The notes beneath the pieces are model-generated. The model did not search any database, was not told where the DNA came from, and saw nothing but the letters and a program-made list of their open reading frames with translations. This document shows positions 3,004 through 34,876 of a DNA stretch of 45,108 nucleotides, piece after piece. Where the stretch lies: contig JBHLKV010000003.1 in NCBI GenBank assembly GCA_048886305.1, positions 1 to 45,108 on the forward strand, in the 5' to 3' direction. The position numbers and the translations under genes are program-made. Each line of letters begins with the position of its first letter. The first letter of the stretch is position 1. The DNA is from Candidatus Hodarchaeota archaeon. Lineage in GTDB: Archaea; Asgardarchaeota; Lokiarchaeia; Sigyniarchaeales; SOKP01.

Positions 3004-5306
3004 AGCTCCTTTAACCACTCCCGATATACTTCTTTAAAATTATCTGCTAATTCAAATCTAGAATTAGTATGCCAAAACTTAAAGCTTAATACGTGAAAAA
3101 GATCTCCCCCAAACAATTCTTTTTCTTCGCTTGTTAAATTGTGTTTTAAAATTAGAGTTAATGGTCTAGGAATCAATTTTGAAAAATATTTTAATTCCAT
3201 CTCTTTGATATAATCATAAAAATGGTCCTCACCATTTAGATTAAAAAAGTTAATAGGAACTTGCTCTTCAAATTGAGGGTTAAGTATGCTCATTTCTTGT
3301 TTGATTCTATTATTAACATACTTCGGAAATTCAGTACTAATATTCATGCTTAAATCATATTGCTTGTAAAAATCAATTAATAAATCCCTTTCCTCAATAT
3401 TCGATATCCGAGCAATATATGTATCCAAAAATTTTAAAAAATGCTCAAACTTCTGCTCATTTGATTCTCTTTCTTCAAAATAGCTAATAAAATCATTGTA
3501 TATCTCGTCTAAAGTCCATTCTTTTCTTTCTTCTAAATTAAAGAATTTTTTGTTATAATCACTTAACCATTCCAAAATATAAGATTTCCAGGTTAAATTT
3601 ATTCCCCCTATTCTTTTTTCTAAAAAGCGATGAAATCTCGTAGCAAAAGTAACTGGATCGGCTATTTCTTTATCAGGTTCTTCTTTGATATACCTATTAA
3701 TTGTTGTATACCTAAGAATATAGCTTAGGAGATAAGATAATTCACTCGAAAATGTCTTAAATCTATCAATATGCTCTCTTATAGTGTTAATATCTTTTTC
3801 CATTTGTATTTCCGCAAAAGACACTAAATCTCCTATCTCTAGTTTTATGTTATCAAAAAATGGCTCTAAATTTGTATTAATTAATCTCCTAAACTCTCTT
3901 ATTATATTTTCTTCATTGAATTTGAGAACTCCTGATAAAACCATTGGATTAACTTCAATTTGGCTAAGAATATGATCTTTAAACTTGTCTATTAATTTCT
4001 GACCAAGGACTTTCGCTGGTTTTTGTTCATCTTCGAATTTTTGTTTTAAATTTTTTGTTAAATCAACAATTAAGGATTTTAGCCTCCTACGCGAGAGATA
4101 TTTTGGAAGAGATGCTTTAACCAAATTCAGACTACTTGTAATAATTTCTGAAAAATAATTAAAGATCGAGCTTAAATCTATTGCTCTTAAGTTTTCTTGC
4201 GCAATTGCTGATTGCTTAATTGTTTTAATCGCTAAATTACTAATATCTTCAAAATCTTCATTTTCAAATTTTGCTTTATTTACAATAAACTGTTTATATT
4301 TTTTTGATAGTTCATCCAGATCTCCAATTTCTCCAGTTGTAAGAAAAGAGTTAGAATATTCAATGAACTTATTCAAATATCTTTCTAAATCAATTAAAAT
4401 TTTATTAATAAAGGAAATTAACGATTTTGCTGGGCAAGGATCATTTAAGTTTTGTATATTTTTTTTAGTATAGTTAATAATGAATGAGATTATTCTATCT
4501 TGAGATTCATCAATTGTACCTGTATTTGCTAAATTAATTAGATTTGTTCCTAACTTTAAGGTTTTATCCACTATAAAATTAGCACTAGGCTCTGATATAG
4601 AATATTTAATATGGTCGATGGATTGCTGCCCCTCATAAGGGCTTTTTAGTCTATCGAATTTTGAATTGAAAAGATTAATCTCATATGGTCGCTTGTGTAA
4701 TAATATATCTACATCTGATTTGACTCTTGCATATGTATTCAACATTTCTTTTTCTGTTGGAAGGGAAGCACTTATACCGATTAATTTTTTATTCCATTTA
4801 TCTTCAATTATTTCTCCAAAGAGTTTTTTGCTGAATCTAGTGGCAAATCTTTTATATACCTGTTGTTTGTCATCATTTTTTAAATCAGGTCGATCGGTAA
4901 ATTCTTCTACTTCAAAAAATAATTTACTTATCTTATTTATCGCTTCATGAGATTTATGGGCATCTAAATATCCCGTTTCAGGCTTTAATGCAAGTAATAA
5001 ACTTTCACAGTCTTTATATTTACCAGGTATGAAAATCATTGATTTTGGAAAAATATTTACTCGAGCACTTTTCTCATCGAGATTATACAATTCAAATTCG
5101 ATACTAAAAACTTCTGAACCAGTATAATCTCTTAAAATTGCATTATACATCCTTAAATATTCTATAACTCCCTGGGAAAGTTCATTAACTTTTTCTCGAG
5201 TTAATTTTCCCGGACCAATTACATCTCCTACAATGATGTCGTTTGGAGAAGAATATCCATATATTAGTGAAAATTGATAATTGATTGATTCTCGTGTAGT
5301 AATCAT
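3000..5306 (-). CDS. large uncharacterised protein (768 aa): alpha/beta N-terminal domain with a longin/roadblock-like strand-helix pattern, then about 600 aa of helical sequence
   Basis: Long ORF with an ATG start. N-terminus: YQFSLIYGY / IIVGDVIGP (two strands), TREKVNELSQGVIEYLRMYNAILRDY (helix), EVFSIEFELY / ARVNIFPKSMIFIPG (strands). The rest is helical. No enzymatic motif recognised. The fold call is pattern-based only. Confidence 0.55.
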   Translation of the reverse strand: MITTRESINYQFSLIYGYSSPNDIIVGDVIGPGKLTREKVNELSQGVIEYLRMYNAILRDYTGSEVFSIEFELYNLDEKSARVNIFPKSMIFIPGKYKDCESLLLALKPETGYLDAHKSHEAINKISKLFFEVEEFTDRPDLKNDDKQQVYKRFATRFSKKLFGEIIEDKWNKKLIGISASLPTEKEMLNTYARVKSDVDILLHKRPYEINLFNSKFDRLKSPYEGQQSIDHIKYSISEPSANFIVDKTLKLGTNLINLANTGTIDESQDRIISFIINYTKKNIQNLNDPCPAKSLISFINKILIDLERYLNKFIEYSNSFLTTGEIGDLDELSKKYKQFIVNKAKFENEDFEDISNLAIKTIKQSAIAQENLRAIDLSSIFNYFSEIITSSLNLVKASLPKYLSRRRLKSLIVDLTKNLKQKFEDEQKPAKVLGQKLIDKFKDHILSQIEVNPMVLSGVLKFNEENIIREFRRLINTNLEPFFDNIKLEIGDLVSFAEIQMEKDINTIREHIDRFKTFSSELSYLLSYILRYTTINRYIKEEPDKEIADPVTFATRFHRFLEKRIGGINLTWKSYILEWLSDYNKKFFNLEERKEWTLDEIYNDFISYFEERESNEQKFEHFLKFLDTYIARISNIEERDLLIDFYKQYDLSMNISTEFPKYVNNRIKQEMSILNPQFEEQVPINFFNLNGEDHFYDYIKEMELKYFSKLIPRPLTLILKHNLTSEEKELFGGDLFHVLSFKFWHTNSRFELADNFKEVYREWLKEL

Positions 5307-5480: not shown

Positions 5481-6158
5481 TTGTCAGAGATCCTTCTTAA
5501 TCAACTTATAGAGAAATTGGATGAGGTACTCTTAGGAAGAAGAGATATTGTATCTGAGATTGAAAAATTAAAAGATGCAATAGAAAAGATTCAGAAAAAG
5601 AAAAAGGATAATATAGGAAGTCAAATCATGAATACTGTAAATGAAATTAAAGTATTTATGTCGAAATCAACCAATGTTTTATATGAACTAAATAATAATA
5701 TGAAAAATTTGCAATATTTAATAAATTCCCTTAATAATGTTTTTGACACAATTATAAATTCAAAAACTATCCAAGAATCGTTTACGAATAGTAAATTTTC
5801 ACTAATCCCTCAAAAACCTGAGCCCTTACCTCGATATGAAAGTAACTTGCCTACTCAGATAATATCTCAAAGTGAATCAATAACACCACCACCACATGTA
5901 CCAGAAAAACCTATTGAAAATGTAGGGGATTCAGATTTTAATTTAATTCTTTCTGTCGCTAAATCAAATAATCCCGCAGTAGAAATCGCAACAATGCTAG
6001 AAAAAATCAGAACTAAATTAGAAAATGAAAATCCTTTAAATCCCATCTTATTTGAATTAAGCATGGAATCAAGACGACTAAAATCATTAGGAAATATACC
6101 ACTTGATCCACATAATTTACAAATTCTAATTGAGAAATTACATAAATGGATTGGATAG
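5481..6158 (+). CDS. coiled-coil protein with a Pro-rich linker and a small helical C-terminal domain (uncharacterised)
   Basis: 225-aa ORF starting at the first possible start (TTG), 15 nt after an in-frame stop. It has N-terminal heptad-like sequence (LIEKLDEVLL...IEKLKDAIEKIQKKKK), then PQKPEPLP...TPPPHVPEKP, then a helical tail. It is divergent from the 808..5306 operon and directly upstream of the Roadblock gene. Confidence 0.5.
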   Translation: MSEILLNQLIEKLDEVLLGRRDIVSEIEKLKDAIEKIQKKKKDNIGSQIMNTVNEIKVFMSKSTNVLYELNNNMKNLQYLINSLNNVFDTIINSKTIQESFTNSKFSLIPQKPEPLPRYESNLPTQIISQSESITPPPHVPEKPIENVGDSDFNLILSVAKSNNPAVEIATMLEKIRTKLENENPLNPILFELSMESRRLKSLGNIPLDPHNLQILIEKLHKWIG

Positions 6159-6288: not shown

Positions 6289-6693
6289 ATACAATTTGGA
6301 TCTGATTTAGGGATTAACCATGAAGATATAGAAAAAATAAGTCCGCAAATCACATTTATAACATCTAATGCAGATATAGAAGCAATCGCACTTGTAAGTG
6401 TAGAAGGTTATCAAATAGCCTTTTCTGCGTTGCCCCAATATCAGGTAGATGGTGATCAATTTTGTGGACTGGCCAGTGCTTTATTAATGACTGGAAGATC
6501 AACAATTCAAACTTTATTCCAAGAAGATATAACTGAAATAATTGTAAGGGCTGAGAATGGATATATTGTGGTAACAAATGCAGGACGCTTAGTCATTGTT
6601 TGTGCAGGGACAATTATTGATACTTTAATGAAAACGGTAAAAGTCATGCGAATAGCAGCAAAGAATCTTTATAAAATCTTTGAAGGGCGATAA
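6289..6693 (+). CDS. Roadblock/LC7 (MglB-like) domain protein, probably initiated at a non-canonical ATA
   Basis: Roadblock-like core: IEAIALVSVEGYQIAFS ... GLASALLMTG ... ITEIIVRAENGYIVVTNAGRLVIVC. The track ORF (TTG 6430) cuts off the first helix and strand. The frame is open back to the stop at 6238..6240 with no ATG, GTG or TTG in between. AGGTG (6277..6281) lies 7 nt upstream of the in-frame ATA at 6289, giving a normal 134-aa Roadblock. Confidence 0.6.
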   Translation: MQFGSDLGINHEDIEKISPQITFITSNADIEAIALVSVEGYQIAFSALPQYQVDGDQFCGLASALLMTGRSTIQTLFQEDITEIIVRAENGYIVVTNAGRLVIVCAGTIIDTLMKTVKVMRIAAKNLYKIFEGR

Positions 6694-9611: not shown

Positions 9612-10124
9612 ATGAAAATGTTAGAAGAAAAATTAAAAATTGACAAAATCTCTAAAGGAACAGTAATTGATCATATTGATGCTGGTTATGCTCTAACTAT
9701 ACTTAATCTTACCGGATTAGATGAATCTAAGAATTTAATGACTATAGGTGTCAATGTGTCTTCTAAAAAATTCCAAACAAAAGATATTATTAAAATTGAA
9801 AATGTATTTCTAAATGAAACTCAAATGCAACAAATTTCAATTCTCTCACCGAATGCAACCATTTCATTAATAGAAAATTATAAGGTAATTGAGAAGAAAA
9901 AAGTTAAAATCCCAAAAACAATTAAAAAATTAATTCTATGCGTAAATCAAACATGCATTTCCAATTCAGAAAAAGAGCCAATTTCAACCCAGTTCGCAGT
10001 CCTTGAAGAAAAACCATTAAAAATTCAATGTGTTTATTGTGAACGAATCTATAAATTAGAAGAAATTATATTTGCCTCTAAAGAAAGAAAAGAAAAGAAA
10101 GTTAAACAAAGAATTCAATTGTAA
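9612..10124 (+). CDS. pyrI: aspartate carbamoyltransferase regulatory subunit
   Basis: Colinear with E. coli PyrI as I recall it: KISKGTVIDHI, TIGVNV, KDIIKIENVFL. The zinc domain is CVNQTC (C-x4-C) ... CVYC (C-x2-C). Confidence 0.85.
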   Translation: MKMLEEKLKIDKISKGTVIDHIDAGYALTILNLTGLDESKNLMTIGVNVSSKKFQTKDIIKIENVFLNETQMQQISILSPNATISLIENYKVIEKKKVKIPKTIKKLILCVNQTCISNSEKEPISTQFAVLEEKPLKIQCVYCERIYKLEEIIFASKERKEKKVKQRIQL

Positions 10125-22847: not shown

Positions 22848-23102
22848 TTAAATATCCCCCTCTATCTCTCTCCTGAACTTAATTCCTTTTTCCGTTAAAA
22901 AGTGTTCTCCTTTAATCTTCTTAATTAATTTTAAATCACGTAAAACAGGAATTCTCCCTTTAATACAAGAAATTGGCAATCCAGAAAACAATTTAATTGT
23001 TTCGTAATTCTTTGCTCCCTTATCAATGGCAAGTAATATCTCAATTCCCATATATCCTAAGAGATATTTCAAGTCATCATACGATTCTACTTCATTAGAC
23101 AT
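22848..23102 (-). CDS. small winged-helix (wHTH) protein
   Basis: 84 aa. GIEILLAIDKGAKNYETIKLFSGLPISCIKGRIPVLRDLKLIKK follows a helix-turn-helix plus wing pattern. It starts 21 nt downstream of the NPRL2-like gene on the same strand. Confidence 0.5.
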   Translation of the reverse strand: MSNEVESYDDLKYLLGYMGIEILLAIDKGAKNYETIKLFSGLPISCIKGRIPVLRDLKLIKKIKGEHFLTEKGIKFRREIEGDI

Positions 23103-23123
23103 TCTTCATCCTGAATTAATAAA

Positions 23124-24260
23124 TTATTTTGACTTATCTTTTTTGGATTCTTTAGGTAATAATTTTCTCATCCACTCTGGAAAGGCAGTAGTTATACGTA
23201 GATTTGTTTTTAAAACAACATACCGTTCATTATTATAATTTAACTCTTCGATTACATCATATTCTTTTAAATATTCTATGTTTTCCATTAGAGAATCTAA
23301 AGTTTTCTTAGACAATAATTTAGGTAATTTATCTCTTGAAATTAAACTATTGCGTAATTCAGAAAGAACATTATACTTTTTAGAATCTGCCATTATTTGA
23401 AATAAAATATAGGAATCTTTTTTTAGCTCTGCTTCTTTCTTTTTTTCATATTCACTAAAATATTCTTGAACCTTTGGAAGTAGCAAATCTATTAACTCTG
23501 GTTTGTCATCAATATATTCTATTACACTATCGGGTGGAATTCTCTCTGCATTTACTTCTTTTAATAGAAGTACATACTTTTCTACTAAGCCAATTTGATT
23601 TATAATAAGAATTTGCTTCTCAACCAATGTATTGATTATTTCTTCGAATTCTTTATTAGGAAAATTTTCAATAAACCATTCTTTTAGTTCTTCTAGTTCT
23701 ACCGGACCTTTTGAGAGTTTTTCTAAGGTTTTAAAAATATGCTCATTATTTATTAGAATTGCTATTTTCTGTTCTTCAGTTTTTTCTCGTGTTTCTTCCA
23801 TTATTGCCCAATATAGGTTCTTTACCCATGCTTTTATTAAAGAATTGTTTTTTATTATCTTTTCAACATCTTCTTCATGATAGTCTTTCTCATTTATGTA
23901 AAAACCTGTAAAGATCTCCTCATTTGATTGTAAACTTTCTGAAAATTCTGTACACAAATTAGCAATAATTTCCTCAATCGAAGGTGCAATTTGTTGATCA
24001 AGTATTACTGAAAACATTAACATTTCCTTATTACCACGAGCCCAATCAGAGTGAATTTCAAAATAATAATTTAATGATTTTAAATTTTCAAAAGAGTGTG
24101 TAAAAAAACCTTCATTAAATTGTTGGTCCATAATATTAGCTATTTTAACTTCTAATTCCTTCTCTAACGTATCTTTGGGATAAGAATAGAATATTAAGGG
24201 CCCAATCTTCCTATGGAAATAAGAAAGCGTAACGGTTGTTTTCAAATAATGAATCTCCAT
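23124..24260 (-). CDS. longin-domain plus tandem winged-helix protein, NPRL2/Npr2-like (GATOR1-subunit-like), tentative
   Basis: 378 aa (human NPRL2 is 380 aa as I recall). The N-terminus TLSYFHRKIGPLIFYSYPKD matches remembered NPRL2 [20 protein letters not shown] at F15, H16, G20, P21, I23, Y25, P28 and D30. WARGN (R75) lines up with NPRL2 YSRN (R78, the Arg finger). Two C-terminal wH-like units follow (IFKTLEKLSKGPVELEEL...LVEKQILIINQIGLVEKYVLL and YNVLSELRNS...YLKEYDVIEELNYNNERYVVL). Confidence 0.5.
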   Translation of the reverse strand: MEIHYLKTTVTLSYFHRKIGPLIFYSYPKDTLEKELEVKIANIMDQQFNEGFFTHSFENLKSLNYYFEIHSDWARGNKEMLMFSVILDQQIAPSIEEIIANLCTEFSESLQSNEEIFTGFYINEKDYHEEDVEKIIKNNSLIKAWVKNLYWAIMEETREKTEEQKIAILINNEHIFKTLEKLSKGPVELEELKEWFIENFPNKEFEEIINTLVEKQILIINQIGLVEKYVLLLKEVNAERIPPDSVIEYIDDKPELIDLLLPKVQEYFSEYEKKKEAELKKDSYILFQIMADSKKYNVLSELRNSLISRDKLPKLLSKKTLDSLMENIEYLKEYDVIEELNYNNERYVVLKTNLRITTAFPEWMRKLLPKESKKDKSK

Positions 24261-24460
24261 GGATATTTTTTCTTTTTACAAATAATACAGTTATTTTTAG
24301 GTCTAATAACTCAAAATAAATTAAATATTAAAGATTATATATTCTTAAAGATAAATAAATTTATCTTATTTAAACATCTATTAACAATAGTTTAGTAATA
24401 AATAGAATCAATTTATTATATTGATTTTCTAAAACATAATGGAAATTTCTACTTAATAGT

Positions 24461-25204
24461 ATGAACAATAATAAAGTTAAATTAGTTGGATTTGATTTAG
24501 ATGATTGCCTATTCGATTCAACTGCCCTTTCTGAAAGAGCTAGAATAAAAGGAATAGATGCGATGATAGATTTAGGTCTAAAAATTGATAGAACGAAGGC
24601 TATTATAAAAATCCAAGATATTGTAAAAGAATACGGATCTAATTTTTCTAAACATTACAATTACTTTATTCGACGATTAAATGAATTTGAAAATTATAAA
24701 ATATCCAGTAATGATAAGTATAAATATATTGCTGCTGCGGTAATAGCTTATCATCAAGAAAAAATTGATTCTATAAAATTATATGACGATGTAAAACCAT
24801 GTTTGGAAAAATTAAGAAGTATGGGAATTAAAACTGCTATTATTAGCGATGGTATCCCCATTAAACAATATGAGAAGATATTAAGACTTAACATTGATAG
24901 CTTATTAGATTTAGTAGTAATCTCAGATGAAATCGGAATTAAGAAACCAAATCCAAAATTATTTGAATACTGTTTAAAGAAATTTGATGTTAAAGGTTCA
25001 GAGACTATTTATATAGGAGATCGAATAGATAAAGACATTATTCCAGCACGTTTAAATGGTATTTATACTATTTATATTCATCGGGGAGGTAAATATGATA
25101 CGTATGAAAAAAGGAACGAAATTTCTGACGAATTAGTACCTAACTATGAGATATCAGATTTGAATGAAATTTTTGATTTAATAATTGAAATAAATAATAA
25201 ATGA
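24461..25204 (+). CDS. HAD-superfamily hydrolase (subfamily IA-like)
   Basis: Motif I FDLDDCLFDS, motif II TAIISDG, and motif IV GDRIDKDI with an upstream K (IKKPNP). Confidence 0.8.
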   Translation: MNNNKVKLVGFDLDDCLFDSTALSERARIKGIDAMIDLGLKIDRTKAIIKIQDIVKEYGSNFSKHYNYFIRRLNEFENYKISSNDKYKYIAAAVIAYHQEKIDSIKLYDDVKPCLEKLRSMGIKTAIISDGIPIKQYEKILRLNIDSLLDLVVISDEIGIKKPNPKLFEYCLKKFDVKGSETIYIGDRIDKDIIPARLNGIYTIYIHRGGKYDTYEKRNEISDELVPNYEISDLNEIFDLIIEINNK

Positions 25205-25224
25205 AAAATTGAACAAAATCTATA

Positions 25225-26040
25225 ATGAGAGTTGCTTGCATTCAACCCGAAATATTTCAAAGTAGAAATAACTGTTATTTTGAAGTAGAAGAATTAATAA
25301 AAAGATTGTTAGAAGATGCAAATAATTGCGACATTATATGTTTGCCAGAAAGATGGGTACCTGTCTATACAAATTCGGCTAAAAATTTCCAAAAAGAAAA
25401 AGGAGATGATTATCTATTTATTAAAAATTTAGCTAATGAATATCATATAAACATTTTATCAGGAGGAATATGGGAGAAACGGGATAATTTGAAAAAACCA
25501 CATATTACCTGCTATTTTTTTAATGAAAGAGGTGAAGAAGTAGATCGCCAAGATAAAATTCATCTCTATTCTTATGAACGAGAACAATTTGAACCAGGAA
25601 ACGTTTTAAAATTATTTAAATTAAATACATATCATTTTGCTATCCTTATTTGTTTTGACATGGCTTTTTTTGAGACTCCTAGATTAGCTGCTGAGAATGG
25701 TGCTGATCTTTTACTTTCTCCCACTCAAATTAGGCTGGAAGGAATGGATAATTGGGATACTTATTTGAAAGCACGGTCTCTTGAGAATAGAATTCCTATT
25801 GCTGCTTGTAATACTTTTGGAACGTTTTTCAGAAGGAAATTTATTGGAAAAAGCAAAATAATTTCTTTCATTGAAGGAAATATTTCACCATCGAAACTTA
25901 AAATAGTTGAAGCTCCTTCTAATTTAAATGGGTATATTTTTGATGATATTGATTTAGATTTTCCAAAAAAGTTAAGGAAAATTCGATTTAAGGAAAAAAT
26001 TGAAAAAAGTAAAATTGAAGTGAAAAATGTAAATAGCTGA
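25225..26040 (+). CDS. carbon-nitrogen hydrolase (nitrilase superfamily amidase)
   Basis: E-K-C triad contexts: ICLPERW, DKIHLY and AILICFD. Confidence 0.75.
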   Translation: MRVACIQPEIFQSRNNCYFEVEELIKRLLEDANNCDIICLPERWVPVYTNSAKNFQKEKGDDYLFIKNLANEYHINILSGGIWEKRDNLKKPHITCYFFNERGEEVDRQDKIHLYSYEREQFEPGNVLKLFKLNTYHFAILICFDMAFFETPRLAAENGADLLLSPTQIRLEGMDNWDTYLKARSLENRIPIAACNTFGTFFRRKFIGKSKIISFIEGNISPSKLKIVEAPSNLNGYIFDDIDLDFPKKLRKIRFKEKIEKSKIEVKNVNS

Positions 26041-26092
26041 GATGCTTATTTTATATACAATTCTATTCTGATGTTTAAATTAAATATAAGAG

Positions 26093-27043
26093 TTGTTTTT
26101 TTTGGAATTGAAGATTTTGTTATGTGGTCTTGAAGATGCTGGAAAAACCTCAATTTTATTAGTTTTAGATAAAAAATTTAGTTTATTAACATCAGTTGCA
26201 CCTACTATCAAAGCTAAAAGAACATCACACACTAACAAGCTTTTAGGCATCTCTACCACACGTTGGGACTTAGGTGGGCAAAAAGCTTACAGAAAAATAT
26301 ACTTAGACAATAAAAGTAAATATTTTACTGAAATGCAATCAATTTTTTACATAATTGATATTCAAAATAAAGATAAATTTGATGAGGCACTAATTTATCT
26401 TAAAGATATTACAAATATTATTACAGATAATCATCCAGATAACTTTCAATTATTAATTCTATTTCATAAATATGACCCTGACATTAAAAACAAAGAAGAA
26501 ATGAAAGATAATATCCACTTTTTAGAAAATAAAATTAATTCAATAATTAAAAAACTAAAGTACTCTTTTTATAGGACTTCTATTTATGATGATTCTAGCT
26601 TAATAAAAGCATTTTCAGATGGTGTATTCTCAGCTACAGAGAAATCAAAATTATTACAATCATTATTAAGAGATTATATGAGTAAAACATACACCAGTTC
26701 TACTCTTCTCTTAGATCAAAATTGTTTCATAATTGCTAGTAGAGCTACCAACGAAGCTTATCAAGAAATTTGTGAAGCAATTGCTCCCAGATTAACAAAT
26801 GCATTAGAAAAATTAGAAGAATGGGATATTGATACGAACGATATAATAACAAATATCGAATTTCCTCAAAATAGTGTAGAGCAATCTAGAGAAGGTATCA
26901 TTTTTTTAAGAAAATTAGAGATAAATAATGATAGATTATATCTTATTGCTCTTTGTTTAAATAAAAGGATTCAAAACAAATCCTATGAGTATCTCCCAAT
27001 ATTAGCTTCAAATCTAAAGAATTTATTAGAAAGTTTTGAATAA
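26093..27043 (+). CDS. Rag/Gtr1-family small GTPase with a C-terminal roadblock domain
   Basis: G1 GLEDAGKTS, G3 WDLGGQ, and G4 as HKYD (Rag-type HKxD rather than NKxD). The family-specific YRTSIYDDSSLIKAFS matches remembered RagA FRTSIWDETLYKAWS. It is followed by about 130 aa with a roadblock-like pattern (TLLLDQNCFIIAS...GIIFLRKLEINNDRLYLIALC). The TTG start at 26093 could instead be one of the in-frame TTGs a few codons downstream (26102 or 26108). Confidence 0.75.
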   Translation: MFFLELKILLCGLEDAGKTSILLVLDKKFSLLTSVAPTIKAKRTSHTNKLLGISTTRWDLGGQKAYRKIYLDNKSKYFTEMQSIFYIIDIQNKDKFDEALIYLKDITNIITDNHPDNFQLLILFHKYDPDIKNKEEMKDNIHFLENKINSIIKKLKYSFYRTSIYDDSSLIKAFSDGVFSATEKSKLLQSLLRDYMSKTYTSSTLLLDQNCFIIASRATNEAYQEICEAIAPRLTNALEKLEEWDIDTNDIITNIEFPQNSVEQSREGIIFLRKLEINNDRLYLIALCLNKRIQNKSYEYLPILASNLKNLLESFE

Positions 27044-27110
27044 GACCAACTTGTTTGATAACAACTTTCTTATTTTCTCTCATTATTTTTTTTAATTTTA
27101 CTTTTAATCA

Positions 27111-27127
27111 CCACCCTCTGTGGGTGG
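27111..27127. promoter_or_regulatory. GC-rich hairpin/palindrome CCACCC-tctgt-GGGTGG immediately upstream of the TATA-like box of the orc1/cdc6-like gene
   Basis: Read directly. The 6-bp all-strong stem stands out in an AT-rich spacer. TTTAAATATATAA follows at 27130..27142, and the ATG is at 27181. Confidence 0.35.
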
Positions 27128-27180: not shown

Positions 27181-28371
27181 ATGATTGTTGAATCAAATAA
27201 TCTTAATGGATATGTCGGACCAAAAGCGATATTTGATCCAAATTATATACCCCCTCAATTATTATATAGAGAAAAAGAAGAAAAATCATTATACTCTATT
27301 TTAAATGATTCAATTGCAGATAAATTTTATCTTAATATATTGTATCAAGGAATTCAAGGAATCGGCAAAAAAGTTATCGTTAATAAAGTTTTGAATGATC
27401 TATTAATTAAAAATAGGGAATTAACAAATATTAATAAAATTTGCATTGATTGTAAAGAAAAGACTCTTGAAGATTTAATTTTTTCAATTTTAACAGAATT
27501 AAATCATTTTTCAAATATTAACTTTAATTTTAATTCAATTTTAACATCGAAGATTTCTCATTTATGGAATATGATTAAATTAGCATGTAAAAAAATAAAT
27601 TGCAATCTTTTCTTTTTATTTTATAATATTGAATGTTTACAGCCAGAAATCTATAAGAAATTTCTGCATTTTGGAAAAGAAACAAATATAACATTGATTT
27701 CTACTGTAAATAAAATTTTAAAACCTTCTACTCTCGATTTATTAAGTGAATTTGATCTAAAAAAAAGATTAGAATTTTTTAGCTATAATGAGTTATACTC
27801 CATTCTTAAACAACGAGTGTCCCTTACATTTACTCATGAAATAGATAAAGAATTAATTAGATATATAACAGATCTAATTTGTGAACATTATGTACCTGTT
27901 CCAGGAAAAGGTATTGAAATACTAAGAGATATATATCCGTTATTAATGGATAAGAAAAATTTCAAACATTATGAATTGATTGATATATGCCAACATGAAT
28001 TCGATTCAATTCAGATTGCTGATGAATTTAGTATTCTTAATTATGTTTCTGAAGAAGATCTTTTAACAATAATATTTTTTGACAATTTATCAAACTATTT
28101 CTTGAAAAAATTGAAATATTATATTTCTTTAAATGAATTAAAGGAATTATATGATATTTCTTGTGAATCTTTAGAATACAAAAAAAGTAGTAACGAATTC
28201 AACAAATTAATTAAAAGATTACTAAGTTTTGGGATTTTAAGTGGTTCAAAGAGAAATCAGATCAAAATGAAACCTTATTTATTAAATAATGCTTCGAATT
28301 ACGATTACTTCTTCATGGCATTAAACCCAAAACACCTAAAAGCTATAGTAGATGCAATATTTAATAAATAA
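27181..28371 (+). CDS. Orc1/Cdc6-like AAA+ protein with degenerate Walker motifs and a C-terminal winged helix
   Basis: The N-terminal YIPPQLLYREKEEKSLYSIL matches the Orc1/Cdc6 opening (P..L..RE.E). Walker A is GIQGIGKK, lacking the S/T after the Lys. The expected hhhhDE Walker B position reads FFLFYNIECL. The C-terminus NEFNKLIKRLLSFGILSGSKRNQ is wH-like. Confidence 0.5.
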   Translation: MIVESNNLNGYVGPKAIFDPNYIPPQLLYREKEEKSLYSILNDSIADKFYLNILYQGIQGIGKKVIVNKVLNDLLIKNRELTNINKICIDCKEKTLEDLIFSILTELNHFSNINFNFNSILTSKISHLWNMIKLACKKINCNLFFLFYNIECLQPEIYKKFLHFGKETNITLISTVNKILKPSTLDLLSEFDLKKRLEFFSYNELYSILKQRVSLTFTHEIDKELIRYITDLICEHYVPVPGKGIEILRDIYPLLMDKKNFKHYELIDICQHEFDSIQIADEFSILNYVSEEDLLTIIFFDNLSNYFLKKLKYYISLNELKELYDISCESLEYKKSSNEFNKLIKRLLSFGILSGSKRNQIKMKPYLLNNASNYDYFFMALNPKHLKAIVDAIFNK

Positions 28372-28559: not shown

Positions 28560-31500
28560 TTGACATATATTAAAAAAATCTCTATGACTGGTTTCAAATC
28601 ATTTGGCGAGCGGACAGTAACAATCAAATTTTCGAGTGGTTTCACATGTATTGTTGGACCAAATGGTGCAGGGAAATCTAATATTATAGATGCATTATGT
28701 TTTGCTTTAGGTAGATTAAGTAAGAAAACGATGAGAGCAAAAAGTTTGGAAGACCTTATTTTTGCTGGTGCTAAAGGAAAAAATCCTTCTACTAGAGCTT
28801 CTGTAACAATGTATTTTGATAATTCAGAAAATGTATTTCCTGGTGGTACTGATACATTCGAAATAACAAGGACTATTAAAAAGGGTGGTGGCGGGGGATA
28901 TAAAATGAATGGTCAAAAATCTACTCGTCAACAGATTCTCAATGCTTTAGCAGCAGCTAATGTAGATCCAGATGGTAGTAATCAATTCGTTCTTCAAGGT
29001 AAAATTGTTGAATTAACTCATATGAATGCTGAAGAAAGAAGATTATTCATTGAAGAATTAATTGGACTTCAGAAATACGATGAAATGAAAGATGCCACAT
29101 TAAAAGAGTTAGAAAAAGCAGAAAGAGATTTAGGACAATTTGAAGCAATTTTTAAAGAAGTTTCTGCCCAGCTTAAAAAAGTTGAAAAAGAAAAAAATGA
29201 TGCGTTAGCTTGGAAAGAATTAGATGAGCAAATTAATCTCTTAAATTCAAAATTAATTGCATTAAAAATTTCAAAATTACGAGAGGAAGAAGATGAATTA
29301 GAAAAAAAGATGGAAGAATCTTCAAAAATTATTGAAGAACTGCAAGAAAAGATCTCTCGACAAGAAGATATACTGAAACAAGAATCATTAGTTATGGAGA
29401 ATATTCAGAAAACAATTACGGATAGAGAAAAGGAAAGAGAAGAAATAAACGAAAACATAACAAATTTAAAGACACAATTATCTTCAAGTCAAACTACTTC
29501 TGATTTAGCTAGAAAATCAATAGATAAACTAACACAAGAAATAAAAAATTTAGAGAATTTACTAATGGCACTCGAGGAAGGACAAACTTATGATTCTTTA
29601 ATACAAGATGTATCTAGTCAAATTTCTGACTGTGAAAATCAACTCGAAACAGCTAAAAAAGAAATTGAAAGAAGACAACAAAACCAATCTGAGTTTGATA
29701 TAAAAATTAAAAATAATGAAGATGAAAAATCACAATTTAAAGCGGAAATATCAAAAGTACAACAAAATATCTCATCAAATAATACCCAGATAAAACTTCT
29801 TAGAGAAAGTATAAAAAAGAATGAAGAAAAGAAAATTAAATTAGAAACTGAATTGAATAAATTGAAACGAGAAGCTGATAGTATAGATGAAGCTATTGAT
29901 GAGGCAAAAAAAACTGAAAAACAAATTAGAAAGACGATTGAAGATTTAAAATCTAAAAACAATGAAGAAAATCAAAAACAAAAAGATTTAGAAGCTAACA
30001 TTAATACTCTTCAAGAAGAAAAAAATCAACTAAATGCAAAATCAGTTCTTCTACAATCTACATTATCATCTTTGAATACTGAAATTAGTATGAATAGAAA
30101 TACAATCCAAGATTTAAATGATAAAAAAGTATCTTTTGAGAATAAAATTAGAGAATTAAGTAAAGGTAAAGACACAGAAGAAGTCGTAAAAGGTTTATTG
30201 AAAGAAAATGATAATATTAATAAACAATTGAGTGAATTAAAAACAGCTTTGAAAAAAGAAAACTCCGCATTCAGGAGCAATGAACAAAATCTAGAATTAT
30301 TAAAGATGAAACGATATTCATTTGATTCAGAAATTCATGATAATAATGCGAAAATAGACAATATTAATACAGAATCAAAAATATTTAAAAAAGAATTAAC
30401 TAAATTGGAACGTGAGAAGGGAAATTCAGAAGTGCAAATCAATTCTCTAAAAAGCAATCTATCAAAAATAGAAAAGGATAATGAAAATTTTACTTCTAAA
30501 AGTCAGAACATTCAAAGACGCTTAGAGGAACTTACAAAAGAAAGAGATAATTTGTTAGAAAAAATTGAATCTTCTGAAGAAGAATATGAGAAAAATACCC
30601 GAGACATAACTGGAATTCTTCAAATTTTAAATATGCTTACTCAAAATATTAACATTTCTGTTGAATCTATTAAAAGTAACATCCAATTATCAAATGCAGA
30701 AGCAATAGAATCCTCTGCTGAAGATTTCAAAAAGTTTATTCTCGATATTGTAGATATCATGAAAAGTGTTGAGGGGATTGGTACGGATACTGATCAATCC
30801 ACTGAAATGTCAGACATGTTAAATTCTATCCTCCGAACTTTAAAATTATTTACTGACAATGCAGATTCAACAATTGATCAATTAATTAGTAGAGTCAAAG
30901 AATCTGCTGACGTAGAAGTACAAGAATCAACCTCAACATTTGATAGTTTTGTACAGGATTTAATGGAAATTCTTGAAAATGTTTATATTTCATTAAGAAA
31001 ATTAACATTATCAAAAAGTCAAGATTTATATAAGCAACTAGAAGATATCTCTGAAAATATTAAATCACAAGGTGGTGATCTTAATAGTGCGGAGAAAAAA
31101 TTGTCAGAATTAAATCTTCAAGAAGCGCATAATTCAGAAACCTTATCAACATTAACTAGAAGACTTGAAGAAATTAACAGTAGAAATAAGGAATTAAATG
31201 AAAGAATTAAAAATTCTGACATAGAAATTGAAGAAAGAAAGAAACAAGTCGATGAGAAGCAAAAAGAAACAGAAAAATTAGATATTGAGATAAATAAACT
31301 TAAAGAACTAAAAGATACTTACTGGGAAAATATTTCAAAGATTCAAGATGATATTGATAAAAAACAAAAAGATTTAGAAGATTTAAGAGAAAATCTTCAA
31401 GAATTGCACGGAATTCAAAGTCTTTTTGAAAATATTACAGAAATTGACAATGACATTGGAAAGTTAAATAACATTATAGAGGAAAAGAAAAATTTAATTA

Positions 31501-33014
31501 TCAACACAGAAGAAAACATAAATCAAATTCACGCAGAACAAGCTACCTTACAAAATAAAATTGAAGCTTTGATTTTAGAAAAAGAAAAATTCTGGGAAAA
31601 AACAGAAAATTTAAGAATACAAATTGACAAGGAAAATGAGTCACTAGAAGATACAATGGATCGCCTAAGAGCACTTGAAAATGTGATGAGAATTATTAAT
31701 TCGATTGAGGATATTAAGAAAGAAAATATAGATGCTAATGGTAAAATTGAACTTTGTCATACTAATATTGAAAAATTCAATTCTCAAGTAGACGAAATTC
31801 AAAAAAATGTTGATAAAAAACAACAGACTATAGATTCCTTGAGAAATGAAAAGACTAAAGAAGTAGAATTACAGAAAGCAGCTCAAAAAGAATTAAATAA
31901 ATTAAATAAGGATTTACAAAAATATCAGCGTCAAATTAACGAGCTAAACAAAAATAAGGAAAGAGAACAAAAAATTACAGAATTAAATCAAGAGATTAAA
32001 GATACTGAAAAACAAATAGAATCAATTTTGGAAGAGTTAGAGCAATTTAAGGAACAGCTTAATAATGAAAATGAAAAAAAGGATGAAAAACAAAAAGAAA
32101 TTGATGAATTCAATCTGAAAAAAGACGAATCATGGAAAAAGCAAAAGCAATATCAAAAAATCTTAAATGATTTAAAATCAGATCTTTCGATGGAAAATGC
32201 GAAAATAAATAATTATGAATCTAAAAAAATTATTTGTACTGATCAAATAGAGACTCTATTCCAGAGATCAAAAGAATATGGTTCACTCCCTACTGTTACC
32301 GAGGATTTAACAGAAGCAGAATTACAATCAGATATTGGGGATGTAACAACGAAGAAAAAAGCTCTTGAACCAGTCAACTTAAAAGCTATTGAACAATATG
32401 ATGCTGTAAAAGAGAGATTCGATGAGATTGATATGCGAAGACAAACTATTCAACGTGAACGCAAGTCGATCTTAGACGCAATAGATAAAATAGAACTTGA
32501 GAAGACAAGAACTTTCATGAAAGCCTACCATGAAATAAACAGAGAGTTCAGTAGAATTTTTCAGAAGCTTAGTCCTGGCGGTTCGGCTAAAATGATCCTA
32601 GATCGTCCTGATAAACCCTTTGAAGGAGGAATCAGTATCGAAGCACGACCTCGTGGAAAGAAAATATCAAGTCTAGAAATTCTTAGTGGGGGTGAAAAAA
32701 CACTTGTGGCGCTCTCATTTATTTTTGCTGTTCAAGAATTTTATCCTGCGCCCTTTTACATTATGGATGAGATTGATGCAGCCCTCGATGGTCCTAATGT
32801 GCACAGAGTTAGTATGGTAATCAAAGAATTTGCATCTCAAGCTCAATTTATGGTAATAAGTCATCGTGAGGAAAACATTGTTAATGCCGATAGAATCTAT
32901 GGAGTTTCAATGCAACAAAGCGGGATCACAGATATCTTTAGTGTTGATTTGGAAGAAGAAGCTAAAAGACTTTTAGAACTTGAAGATATTGAACCTACCA
33001 TTACAGAAAATTAA
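28560..33014 (+). CDS. smc: SMC-family chromosome segregation ATPase, unusually long (1484 aa), with no recognisable hinge
   Basis: Head motifs: FKSFG, Walker A GPNGAGKSN, QGKIVELTHMNAEERRLFIEELIG, signature LSGGEKTL, Walker B FYIMDEIDAALD, D-loop/H-loop ...VISHRE. The TTG start at 28560 has GGAGAT 6 nt upstream, and the N-terminus YIKKISMTGFKSFG requires this start. It lies directly upstream of scpA and scpB. Confidence 0.85.
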   Translation: MTYIKKISMTGFKSFGERTVTIKFSSGFTCIVGPNGAGKSNIIDALCFALGRLSKKTMRAKSLEDLIFAGAKGKNPSTRASVTMYFDNSENVFPGGTDTFEITRTIKKGGGGGYKMNGQKSTRQQILNALAAANVDPDGSNQFVLQGKIVELTHMNAEERRLFIEELIGLQKYDEMKDATLKELEKAERDLGQFEAIFKEVSAQLKKVEKEKNDALAWKELDEQINLLNSKLIALKISKLREEEDELEKKMEESSKIIEELQEKISRQEDILKQESLVMENIQKTITDREKEREEINENITNLKTQLSSSQTTSDLARKSIDKLTQEIKNLENLLMALEEGQTYDSLIQDVSSQISDCENQLETAKKEIERRQQNQSEFDIKIKNNEDEKSQFKAEISKVQQNISSNNTQIKLLRESIKKNEEKKIKLETELNKLKREADSIDEAIDEAKKTEKQIRKTIEDLKSKNNEENQKQKDLEANINTLQEEKNQLNAKSVLLQSTLSSLNTEISMNRNTIQDLNDKKVSFENKIRELSKGKDTEEVVKGLLKENDNINKQLSELKTALKKENSAFRSNEQNLELLKMKRYSFDSEIHDNNAKIDNINTESKIFKKELTKLEREKGNSEVQINSLKSNLSKIEKDNENFTSKSQNIQRRLEELTKERDNLLEKIESSEEEYEKNTRDITGILQILNMLTQNINISVESIKSNIQLSNAEAIESSAEDFKKFILDIVDIMKSVEGIGTDTDQSTEMSDMLNSILRTLKLFTDNADSTIDQLISRVKESADVEVQESTSTFDSFVQDLMEILENVYISLRKLTLSKSQDLYKQLEDISENIKSQGGDLNSAEKKLSELNLQEAHNSETLSTLTRRLEEINSRNKELNERIKNSDIEIEERKKQVDEKQKETEKLDIEINKLKELKDTYWENISKIQDDIDKKQKDLEDLRENLQELHGIQSLFENITEIDNDIGKLNNIIEEKKNLIINTEENINQIHAEQATLQNKIEALILEKEKFWEKTENLRIQIDKENESLEDTMDRLRALENVMRIINSIEDIKKENIDANGKIELCHTNIEKFNSQVDEIQKNVDKKQQTIDSLRNEKTKEVELQKAAQKELNKLNKDLQKYQRQINELNKNKEREQKITELNQEIKDTEKQIESILEELEQFKEQLNNENEKKDEKQKEIDEFNLKKDESWKKQKQYQKILNDLKSDLSMENAKINNYESKKIICTDQIETLFQRSKEYGSLPTVTEDLTEAELQSDIGDVTTKKKALEPVNLKAIEQYDAVKERFDEIDMRRQTIQRERKSILDAIDKIELEKTRTFMKAYHEINREFSRIFQKLSPGGSAKMILDRPDKPFEGGISIEARPRGKKISSLEILSGGEKTLVALSFIFAVQEFYPAPFYIMDEIDAALDGPNVHRVSMVIKEFASQAQFMVISHREENIVNADRIYGVSMQQSGITDIFSVDLEEEAKRLLELEDIEPTITEN

Positions 33015-34054: not shown

Positions 34055-34876
34055 ATGAACAATTCTAATGAGAATTTAGATGATAATTTAAGTAGAGAGC
34101 CTGACGAAGTTATTGAAGAAATTTCTGAAGACCTTGATGAAGAATTAGATGATTCTTCTAAAATTGAAAAGAGTAATGGAGAATCTGAGGTCTTTTCTGA
34201 AGATGAAATAATTGAAGAACTAGAGGAAATCGAAACCGAACCACCGATGATAGAAAAAATAGATTCAAGTATTGAAGATGAATCTGTTGTAGTTGAAGAA
34301 CTAGATGAAGAATCATTAAAAAGGCAAGTAAGAGAATTTCATCGAAATCTAATTGAAGCTTCCCTATATGCCGCTGGTCGACCTTTGACAATTGAAGAAT
34401 TATCAACAAAATTAGAATTACCCAAAAAAGAAGTGGAAGAATTAACCAATGAAGTAGCATATGATTATTTAGATCGCTCCACTGCATTAATAATAGCACA
34501 AATTGGGGATAGGTATCAAATGCAGATAAGACCTGAATATACTGAAAAAGTTTCAAAGTTTGCTAAAGGTGGTGCTATTGCAGAACGTTATTTAAGAACT
34601 TTAACCGTAATTGCCTTAAAGCAACCAATATTGAAATCAACAGTAATTAAATTAAGAGGAACTGGAGCTTATGAACATGTAAAATATCTTTTAGATAACG
34701 GGTTCATAAATGCGGTAAAAAAAGGCAGATCTCAAGAATTAACTACTACTGATAAATATGCTGATATGTTTGGCTTACCAAAAAACATAAGTCAATTGAA
34801 AAAGGTTATGGTTACCCAGTTAGGTGTTGAGGAAGAAGGAAAAAGTGAACAACTAAGTGAAGAAAAAGAAGAATAA
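34055..34876 (+). CDS. scpB: segregation and condensation protein B with an acidic N-terminal extension
   Basis: LIEASLYAAGRPLTIEELS ... two wH units (ERYLRTLTVIALKQPILKSTVIKLRG...LLDNGFI). It is preceded by about 90 aa of D/E-rich low complexity. Confidence 0.8.
   Translation: MNNSNENLDDNLSREPDEVIEEISEDLDEELDDSSKIEKSNGESEVFSEDEIIEELEEIETEPPMIEKIDSSIEDESVVVEELDEESLKRQVREFHRNLIEASLYAAGRPLTIEELSTKLELPKKEVEELTNEVAYDYLDRSTALIIAQIGDRYQMQIRPEYTEKVSKFAKGGAIAERYLRTLTVIALKQPILKSTVIKLRGTGAYEHVKYLLDNGFINAVKKGRSQELTTTDKYADMFGLPKNISQLKKVMVTQLGVEEEGKSEQLSEEKEE

Follow-up and report, generated by a model that had tools for sequence, protein, structure and literature searches.

An NPRL2-like longin protein and a Rag-family GTPase in a conserved divergent gene neighbourhood of Lokiarchaeia

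NPRL2/Npr2 is the catalytic longin subunit of GATOR1/SEACIT and acts as the GTPase-activating protein (GAP) for RagA/Gtr1, using Arg78 in the β4-β5 loop as catalytic arginine finger. In prokaryotes, the Ras-like GTPase MglA and its Roadblock-domain GAP, MglB, are encoded alongside each other. Here, we analysed a locus that combines components of a similar kind, i.e. a 378-amino-acid NPRL2-like longin protein (X378), an 84-amino-acid winged-helix-like protein (wH84), a HAD-superfamily protein, a Nit-type amidase and a Rag/Gtr1-family GTPase, on contig JBHLKV010000003.1 of a Candidatus Hodarchaeota archaeon. The window, meaning the whole stretch of DNA that was analysed, comprises 45,108 nt with a G+C content of 23-37%, and its nearest relatives are Lokiarchaeial metagenome-assembled genomes (MAGs; NCBI: Promethearchaeota). 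An initial annotation had proposed a Rag/GATOR1-type nutrient-signalling module for this locus, a reading that, taken as a whole, is partly supported by our data.

X378 resembles NPRL2 in its N-terminal longin domain followed by winged-helix-containing domains, in its size (378 versus 380 amino acids), in a GP motif at identical residue numbers (G20-P21) and in the predicted position of an invariant arginine in the β4-β5 loop (Arg75 versus Arg78), and a gene of the family that includes RagA lies 2 kb away. It differs from GATOR1 in that PF06218 membership is undetectable, NPRL3 and DEPDC5 partners were not seen and Rag is absent from half of the species with X378. FLCN-FNIP and C9orf72-SMCR8 also contain longin domains of the GP-motif/arginine-finger type, and FNIP2/FLCN were the next-best fold matches; however, both complexes carry a DENN domain where X378 has winged helices after the longin domain. 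The locus shares with MglA-MglB the presence of a small GTPase and a longin/roadblock-fold protein in one place, whereas MglB is a single roadblock protein without an arginine finger, encoded in a tight operon, and the X378 and Rag genes are divergent with enzyme genes between them.

That Asgard archaea encode NPRL2-like longin domains as well as GTPases of the Gtr/Rag type is established (10.1101/2020.10.19.343400; PMC9834061), and these organisms lack a TOR kinase (10.1101/2020.10.19.343400). Asgard longins that carry a GP motif plus an arginine finger have likewise been described, together with the question of whether Rag or Arf-related GTPases are their clients (PMC12290439). The NPRL2-like longin clusters of orthologous genes (asCOGs) of Liu et al. 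(10.1101/2020.10.19.343400; PMC9834061) comprise the same kind of domain and the same PAS/histidine-kinase and GTPase fusions that we found among X378 relatives, and X378 almost certainly belongs to one of those families. Neither a longin-winged helix-winged helix orthologue family nor a HAD/Nit-type amidase/Rag neighbourhood is described in the accessible parts of the asCOG papers and PMC12290439. According to Tran et al. (PMC10933270), the GTPase genes of MK-D1 are as a rule not grouped with those for longin or roadblock proteins, and the genome layout is rarely helpful. Since we found no paper in the library searched in which the X378/Rag pair is named by its accession numbers from MK-D1 or L. 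ossiferum, the conserved neighbourhood, the longin-winged helix-winged helix family and the promoter block described below appear to be unreported. Of the new functional context that had been envisaged for the locus, the conserved neighbourhood can therefore stand, but not the novelty of NPRL2-like longins and Rag GTPases in Asgard archaea, and the locus is a variant on a known theme rather than a new kind of system.

All five open reading frames (ORFs), the spacers of 20 and 52 nt and the shared 200-nt region were confirmed at the positions given by the initial annotation, and the HAD, nitrilase-superfamily amidase and Rag/Gtr1-like assignments were borne out by Pfam (the first also by NCBIfam):

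22848-23102, minus strand: wH84, 84 amino acids, ORF call
23124-24260, minus strand: X378, 378 amino acids, ORF call, 21 nt from the downstream wH84 gene
24461-25204, plus strand: HAD protein (Pfam, NCBIfam)
25225-26040, plus strand: carbon-nitrogen (CN) hydrolase, i.e. the Nit-type amidase (Pfam), 20 nt after the HAD gene
26093-27043, plus strand: Rag/Gtr1-family GTPase, 316 amino acids, TTG start, 52 nt after the CN hydrolase gene

The most satisfactory explanation of our data, which we put forward tentatively and with slightly less than even confidence, is that this is an ancestral Lokiarchaeial neighbourhood in which an NPRL2-like, GAP-type regulator and a winged-helix gene diverge from HAD, amidase and Rag genes across a conserved promoter. 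A single-sequence query recovered four near-identical Rag loci, and an alignment-based query was used instead. For synteny, two genome scans gave 131 and 177 loci, all of them in Asgard records, of which up to 80 per scan were kept, and metagenome look-ups added the contexts of distant homologues. The combined set comprised 117 distinct loci, 100 of them with enough flanking sequence to judge the presence of the amidase and Rag genes. HAD adjoins X378 in 110 of the 117, the exceptions being contig ends or insertions, while the amidase was found in 90 and Rag in 52 of the 100 judgeable loci (both in 45, amidase only in 45, Rag only in 7 and neither in 3).

Rag-bearing loci with differing flanks were found in CR_4, MK-D1, L. 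ossiferum and loci L133, L134, L137 and L141. In the CR_4 lineage (L169), with 37-41% protein identity, the order Rag-CN-HAD <-> X378-wH84-DUF2095-L15e recurs, and the gene order of the window (L15e, DUF2095, wH84 <- X378 <-> HAD -> CN -> Rag) is therefore probably ancestral. Several deep lineages, including MK-D1, have a parvulin peptidyl-prolyl isomerase (PPIase) and no amidase, and the arrangements outside the window's clade include the following:

MK-D1 (L140): X378 <-> HAD -> parvulin PPIase -> Rag, genes for TFIIB and inositol-1-phosphate synthase at the flanks
L. ossiferum (L161): X378 <-> HAD -> 119-amino-acid ORF -> Rag, the same as MK-D1 at the level of ORF layout
L133: HAD -> Rag
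L134: HAD -> PPIase -> CN -> Rag -> PyrI
Harpocratesius (L146): X378 inverted and co-directional with HAD-PPIase, Rag lost

The linkage of X378, HAD and Rag thus outlives the rearrangement of its flanks, and the Rag gene already belonged to the locus before the MK-D1, L. ossiferum, CR_4 and window lineages diverged. The pairs in the two first-named organisms are DSAG12_00773 (X378) with DSAG12_00770 (Rag), and NEF87_002819 (X378) with NEF87_002816 (Rag), respectively. The proposed synteny accordingly holds in lineages around 40% identical with other flanks, but general co-occurrence does not, given that Rag is absent from 48 of the 100 judgeable loci.

Regarding X378 itself, neither the protein nor its family profile matched any PDB sequence, the protein had no Pfam or NCBIfam match, and in public records its orthologues are listed as 'hypothetical' or, for two of them, as 'ArsR family regulator'. 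An AlphaFold2 (AF2) model from a shallow alignment (sequences at least 74% identical) reached a mean predicted local distance difference test (pLDDT) score of 45; distant representatives were added for the final model, which reached a pLDDT of 92.8 and a predicted template modelling score (pTM) of 0.80. The model comprises a longin domain (residues ~1-157, bb-a-bbb-aa, where a is helix and b is strand), a winged helix (~162-241), a helical linker and a second winged helix (~276-359). When compared with the PDB by Foldseek, its best matches were GATOR1 NPRL2/Npr2 chains (9o5a_H, 9o5d_D, 9v0j_A, 8adl_S, 7t3b_B and 6ces_N) with E values of 7e-6 to 3e-3 and up to 319 aligned columns, the best of them (E 7e-6 to 1e-4) aligning over 291-319 columns and hence past the longin domain. 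Seven of the top ten were NPRL2/Npr2-like and three NPRL3- or FLCN-FNIP2-like chains, the identities of 8adl_S and 6ces_N being established by sequence and those of some others from entry membership and modelled length. Lower-ranked matches were NPRL3 and FNIP2/FLCN (6ulg, 8dhb), then DENND1A, as well as ArsR-type winged helix-turn-helix (wHTH) proteins on the winged helices.

Two motifs of the longin domain point in the same direction, i.e. FHRKIGP (residues 15-21), which contains the GP dipeptide, and WARGNKE (73-79), which contains Arg75. In 61 diverse relatives, residues F15, G20, P21, R75 and G76 show a conservation of at least 90%, and none of them varies among 100 orthologous loci. In a single comparison with human NPRL2, the X378 family profile scored 16.6 bits (E 3e-7 at Z=1) over residues 9-40, a stretch in which G20-P21 of X378 is in register with G20-P21 of NPRL2, and Arg75 lies in the predicted β4-β5 loop of the AF2 model. 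X378 is thus NPRL2-like in predicted fold, architecture and motifs and stands outside the Pfam NPR2 family; what had been said of the 378-amino-acid protein holds for its fold, its architecture and its GP motif, but not for any Pfam hit or significant profile-profile match.

An exhaustive profile search with X378 recovered 462 relatives, few of them full-length, most sharing only the N-terminal ~150 residues in varied architectures. Among the 61 diverse relatives, we found Ras/Arf GTPase (12), PAS (9) and histidine-kinase ATPase (3) domains, and at least ten of the top 150 representatives (local phmmer) are fusions of an N-terminal longin domain with a C-terminal Ras-like domain. Other Asgard proteins thus carry this longin type in fusion with a Ras-like GTPase domain, in support of a GTPase-directed role. 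NPRL2-like longin domains also occur elsewhere in fusion with TIR (P0152) and TBP (P0168), as well as V4R, GAF and HerA-type domains.

The 316-amino-acid protein scored 94.9 bits against Pfam Gtr1_RagA (PF04670, cut-off 22) and shows the G motifs G1 GLEDAGKTS (residues 12-20), G3 DLGGQ (59-63) and the Rag-type HKxD G4 HKYD (125-128), all invariant among its orthologues; on these grounds it is a true member of the Rag/Gtr family. Its closest PDB sequence matches are the Asgard Rag-like proteins 8yl2 and 8zla, followed by Gtr1 and RagA. The alignment to the Asgard Rag structures ends at around residue 245 and the C-terminal 131 residues have no Pfam match; these ~130 residues are predicted to form a roadblock-type domain, and the MK-D1 orthologue WP_147661882.1 has been classed as GTPase-roadblock (PMC10933270, supplement). 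The locus-linked Rag proteins align with each other from end to end (34-45% identity, 181-221 bits) and are closer to each other than to the solved Loki Rag paralogues (112 bits). The solved Asgard Rag-like GTPases (8yl2; 8zla/9m28 'LokiRagM'), one of which is described as monomeric in the PDB title of 8zla, belong to the same family and share the layout of a GTPase followed by a C-terminal domain, but are paralogues (112-127 bits) and not orthologues of the Rag protein encoded here. When two conserved peptide patterns of this Rag were used for a scan, its orthogroup turned up in no genome without a copy at the locus, and away from the locus there were two partial second copies (L123 and L124); in Rag-less genomes, the search did not proceed gene by gene.

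The Rag gene may have an internal promoter of its own, for which the spacer upstream of it holds a candidate; the elements around the gene, as read from the sequence, are:

26050-26057, plus strand: TATA-like TTTATATA in the CN-hydrolase/Rag spacer, ~36-43 nt before the Rag TTG
27086-27093, 3' of the Rag gene: run of eight T

Two enzymes are encoded between X378 and Rag. The HAD protein (Pfam 86.6 bits, TIGR02253 193 bits) has intact motifs (D12/D14, S129, K161/K162 and GDRIDKD at 186-192) and its closest solved structure is 2hoq (PH1655, uncharacterised; E 9e-46), identifying it by profile as a HAD-superfamily phosphatase of the TIGR02253/PH1655 type. The CN hydrolase (Pfam 99.7 bits) has the catalytic triad E42/K111/C143 and its closest PDB entries are 3p8k, PH0642, yeast Nit3 and Nit2; no NCBIfam equivalog was reached, and by profile and triad it is a Nit-type CN hydrolase, uncharacterised.

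On the other side of the spacer, wH84 lies immediately downstream of X378 in the window's clade, and most of the deep lineages whose flanks are long enough have a wH84-like ORF of 39-48% identity within ~0.7-3 kb. The 21-nt X378-wH84 spacer contains the ribosome-binding-like AGGATGA, and both genes are probably co-transcribed. wH84 is basic (isoelectric point, pI, 8.7) and scored 23.7 bits against Pfam HTH_45, under the cut-off of 25.5; it had no informative PDB match and showed no resemblance to either winged helix of X378. The winged-helix assignment of the initial annotation can thus be retained for wH84 as a basic winged-helix-like candidate, at a sub-threshold score. X378 is acidic (pI 5.1 overall; 4.8 with a net charge of -6 for the first winged helix and 6.6 for the second), and because of this difference in charge we assign DNA binding to wH84.

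The divergent X378/HAD spacer (24261-24460) spans 200 nt with 15% G+C and contains the following elements:

24311-24380: conserved block, the putative promoter core; in 42 orthologous spacers its per-column identity is 0.78-1.00, with a peak at 24331-24360, and that of the flanks 0.45-0.6
24334-24342: TATA-like ATTATATAT, inside the conserved block
24348-24367: palindrome 1, AAGATAAAT-aa-ATTTATCTT, with the inner invariant core ATAAATAAATTTAT at 24351-24364
24406-24426: palindrome 2, AATCAAT-n7-ATTGATT, kept in the four nearest relatives only

Both palindromes had been noted in the initial annotation and are present at these coordinates, but only the first is conserved. Neither is remarkable by composition alone: a perfect 9+9 palindrome arose in 16% of shuffles of the 200-nt spacer, the window contains 110 palindromes of 7+7, and ~1.5 copies of the 14-nt inner core of palindrome 1 are expected per window at up to one mismatch. 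However, species with proteins of 61-98% identity share palindrome 1 and the surrounding ~50 nt almost without change, and 37 of 80 loci contain the exact 20-mer, always in the same place, ~90-105 nt from the X378 start codon. Variants in the Rag-less sister clade keep the inner core, with the L159 variant altering both arms symmetrically (AAAAT..ATTTT), and in the MK-D1 clade the TATA-like element AAATTATATATTAT alone is retained. A regulon search found no further copy of palindrome 1 in the window or the studied loci.

Considering this conservation, positions 24311-24380 probably represent a bidirectional core promoter and operator, while palindrome 2 is most likely a chance feature of the 15% G+C spacer. 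Archaeal operators usually overlap the start site. The TATA-like ATTATATAT and palindrome 1 are ~22 nt apart; should either of them serve as TATA box in one direction, the other would overlap the likely start site. The basic wH84 would be the best candidate for a protein that binds palindrome 1.

Taken together, we would expect X378, probably as a longin-mediated dimer, to dock on the G domain of a small GTPase and to supply Arg75 as an arginine finger, resulting in GAP-type regulation, with the locally encoded Rag as one client where present, and wH84 to bind the palindrome overlapping the core promoter and so set the expression of both arms. Several findings weigh against this view. X378 and its N-terminal domain fail to match Pfam NPR2 (PF06218) even at E<=10, as do the 61 relatives, and hhalign gave a probability of 1.4%, i.e. 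not significant, for the X378 family profile against a vertebrate-plus-yeast NPRL2 profile, which was shallow since the homologue search gave vertebrates only, with a like result for human NPRL2 alone; the X378-NPRL2 relationship is therefore one of structure and motif. Arg75 would be topologically equivalent to Arg78 of NPRL2 by its loop position rather than by residue-level superposition. Neither an NPRL3-like second longin ORF nor a DEPDC5-like partner was seen in the 45-kb window or the conserved neighbourhood, to which the search was confined. More distant longin relatives of X378 are found on short contigs or in unrelated contexts, as P0165 is. Adjacency is itself weak evidence of coupling because the whole region is syntenic across the window's clade, including L15e, DUF2095 and SMC. 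The strongest point concerns Rag, which 48 of the 100 judgeable loci lack beside an X378 that is conserved to the same degree, including Arg75 and the GP motif, with no relaxation. As the Rag-less loci form several separate groups on a neighbour-joining tree of a single protein, Rag appears to have been lost repeatedly, a count that depends on that tree. X378 is therefore not a dedicated GAP of the local Rag, and Rag cannot be its only client, since Rag-less species keep X378 unchanged. The case for a setting in nitrogen metabolism is thin, with an amidase that is an uncharacterised Nit-type enzyme and is replaced by a parvulin PPIase in several deep lineages. As for the RagC-like paralogue and the NPRL3-like partner expected of a full system, neither was found within the window, which holds no second small GTPase, and each related locus has one only.

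It is possible, though unlikely, that we are looking at conserved synteny without functional coupling, i.e. that X378 and HAD are a housekeeping pair and Rag a dispensable, vertically inherited passenger, while X378 has its GTPase partner elsewhere or regulates no GTPase at all. The unchanged X378 in the 48 Rag-less loci would fit well with this, as would the equal synteny of the unrelated L15e, DUF2095, Orc1/Cdc6-like and SMC genes in the window's clade and the general lack of such organisation in MK-D1 (Tran et al., PMC10933270); moreover, for a genome with ~90 small GTPases we put at ~0.1 the chance that a particular longin gene has a Rag gene no more than 3 kb away (own estimate, counts from PMC10933270). 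Yet a mere passenger would hardly be expected to stay on the HAD-led strand beside X378 when the flanks are replaced (TFIIB in MK-D1, PyrI in L134, Cdc6-like/SMC in the window), nor would one expect its orthogroup to be missing off-locus in the pattern scan (barring the partial copies in L123 and L124) or the X378 longin type to be fused to GTPases elsewhere. Chance co-location with palindromes as AT-rich noise is barely credible: at 15% G+C, palindromes of such length are nothing unusual, a window would hold ~1.5 copies of the 14-nt core by expectation and palindrome 2 is not conserved, but the near-invariance of palindrome 1 with its ~50 nt and a gene linkage conserved across 117 loci refute it for the gene order and palindrome 1, so that it survives for palindrome 2 only.

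Less probable than a passenger Rag, in our opinion, is a stronger form of the GAP reading, in which the locus is a minimal pre-eukaryotic Rag/GATOR1-type switch, with Arg75 of X378 turning off a Rag co-expressed with HAD and amidase or parvulin, and wH84 as a repressor on the palindromic operator; if true, a nutrient- or metabolite-responsive GTPase circuit would predate TOR and lysosomes. Somewhat more doubtful still, X378 could itself be a transcription factor, combining a ligand- or GTPase-sensing longin domain with DNA-binding wHTH domains (CodY-like logic), that binds palindrome 1 and controls HAD, amidase and Rag as well as its own gene. Divergent genes around a highly conserved palindromic operator are the classic architecture of a regulator and its targets, two orthologues carry the 'ArsR family regulator' label, the winged helices match the ArsR-type SrnR, HlyU and SqrR (probability 1.0) and CodY is a weak match for the model as a whole (E ~1e-2). 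However, the strong acidity of X378 and of its first winged helix in particular is unlike DNA-binding wHTH proteins, and NPRL2, the winged helices of which likewise do not bind DNA, is the better full-length match. Palindrome 1 is also confined to the window's clade while X378 is conserved in all lineages, and the adjacent basic wH84 is the simpler candidate for its binding.

We therefore keep to the ancestral neighbourhood with a GAP-type regulator as our tentative reading. Asgard genomes encode dozens of small GTPases and longin/roadblock proteins whose regulator-client pairs are mostly unassigned, and the locus offers a specific, old candidate pair that is present in both cultured Lokiarchaea (MK-D1 and L. 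ossiferum) and thus open to bench testing. If the pair works, the Rag/GATOR1 logic would be older than eukaryotes and TOR; if not, the repeated loss of Rag already points to another, more essential role of X378. Independently of this, the near-invariant promoter/operator block gives one of the few concrete ways into the gene regulation of Lokiarchaea.

Some loci of the set deviate in other ways. Extra DNA lies between X378 and HAD in the Rag-less loci L043 and L049 (~2.4 kb) and L048, L051, L058, L052, L187 and L205 (~1.2-1.3 kb); this insertion may be a mobile element. In the Rag-less clade of L144, L145, L163 and L166, another gene is found between the amidase and Orc1/Cdc6-like genes, encoding Endonuclease V in L145 (4353-5096, minus strand), the one locus of the four that was scanned. 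The taxon labels of several MAGs are unreliable: near-identical loci are labelled Thor-, Odin-, Hod- or Hermodarchaeota, and contigs with a Lokiarchaeial locus bear bacterial names, namely L078/L175 (DATKTW010000128.1, 'Nanopelagicaceae bacterium') and L130 (JAAKFN010000035.1, 'Anoxychlamydiales bacterium'). These odd labels are probably the result of mis-binning or mislabelling.

The remainder of the window contains the following further features:

808-3018 and 3000-5306, minus strand: two large ORFs of 736 and 768 amino acids with a 19-nt overlap, no Pfam match
5481-6158: ORF of 225 amino acids beside the large ORFs, no meaningful match
6430-6693, plus strand: Roadblock/LC7 ORF (30.2 bits), frame open from 6289, first canonical start at 6430, 17 kb from the locus
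9612-10124, plus strand: PyrI, the regulatory chain of aspartate carbamoyltransferase, 16 kb from Rag
27111-27127: G+C-rich hairpin CCACCC-tctgt-GGGTGG in a spacer of ~25% G+C, just upstream of the TATA-like TTTAAATATATAA of the Orc1/Cdc6-like gene
27181-28371, plus strand: degenerate Orc1/Cdc6-like gene, 396 amino acids (TIGR02928 39 bits, below its cut-off of 181; weak match to Cdc6_C)
28560-33014: ORF of 1484 amino acids directly downstream of the Orc1/Cdc6-like gene, taken as SMC in view of a Walker-A motif at the N-terminus and of coiled-coil stretches
34055-34876: ScpB (TIGR00281 97 bits)

The Roadblock ORF, which had been cited as a further component of the module, is present, but being 17 kb off in genomes that hold dozens of such genes it adds nothing to the case; its true start may be non-canonical or its N-terminus short. 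The CCACCC hairpin downstream of the Rag gene has no second copy in the window and arose in 0 of 100 shuffles, but it is not conserved, as one near-identical relative alone shares it. In the window's clade, nearly all loci have the Orc1/Cdc6-like, SMC and ScpB trio after the Rag or amidase gene. In the distant L134, the PyrI gene (1299-1811) is located directly after the Rag gene.

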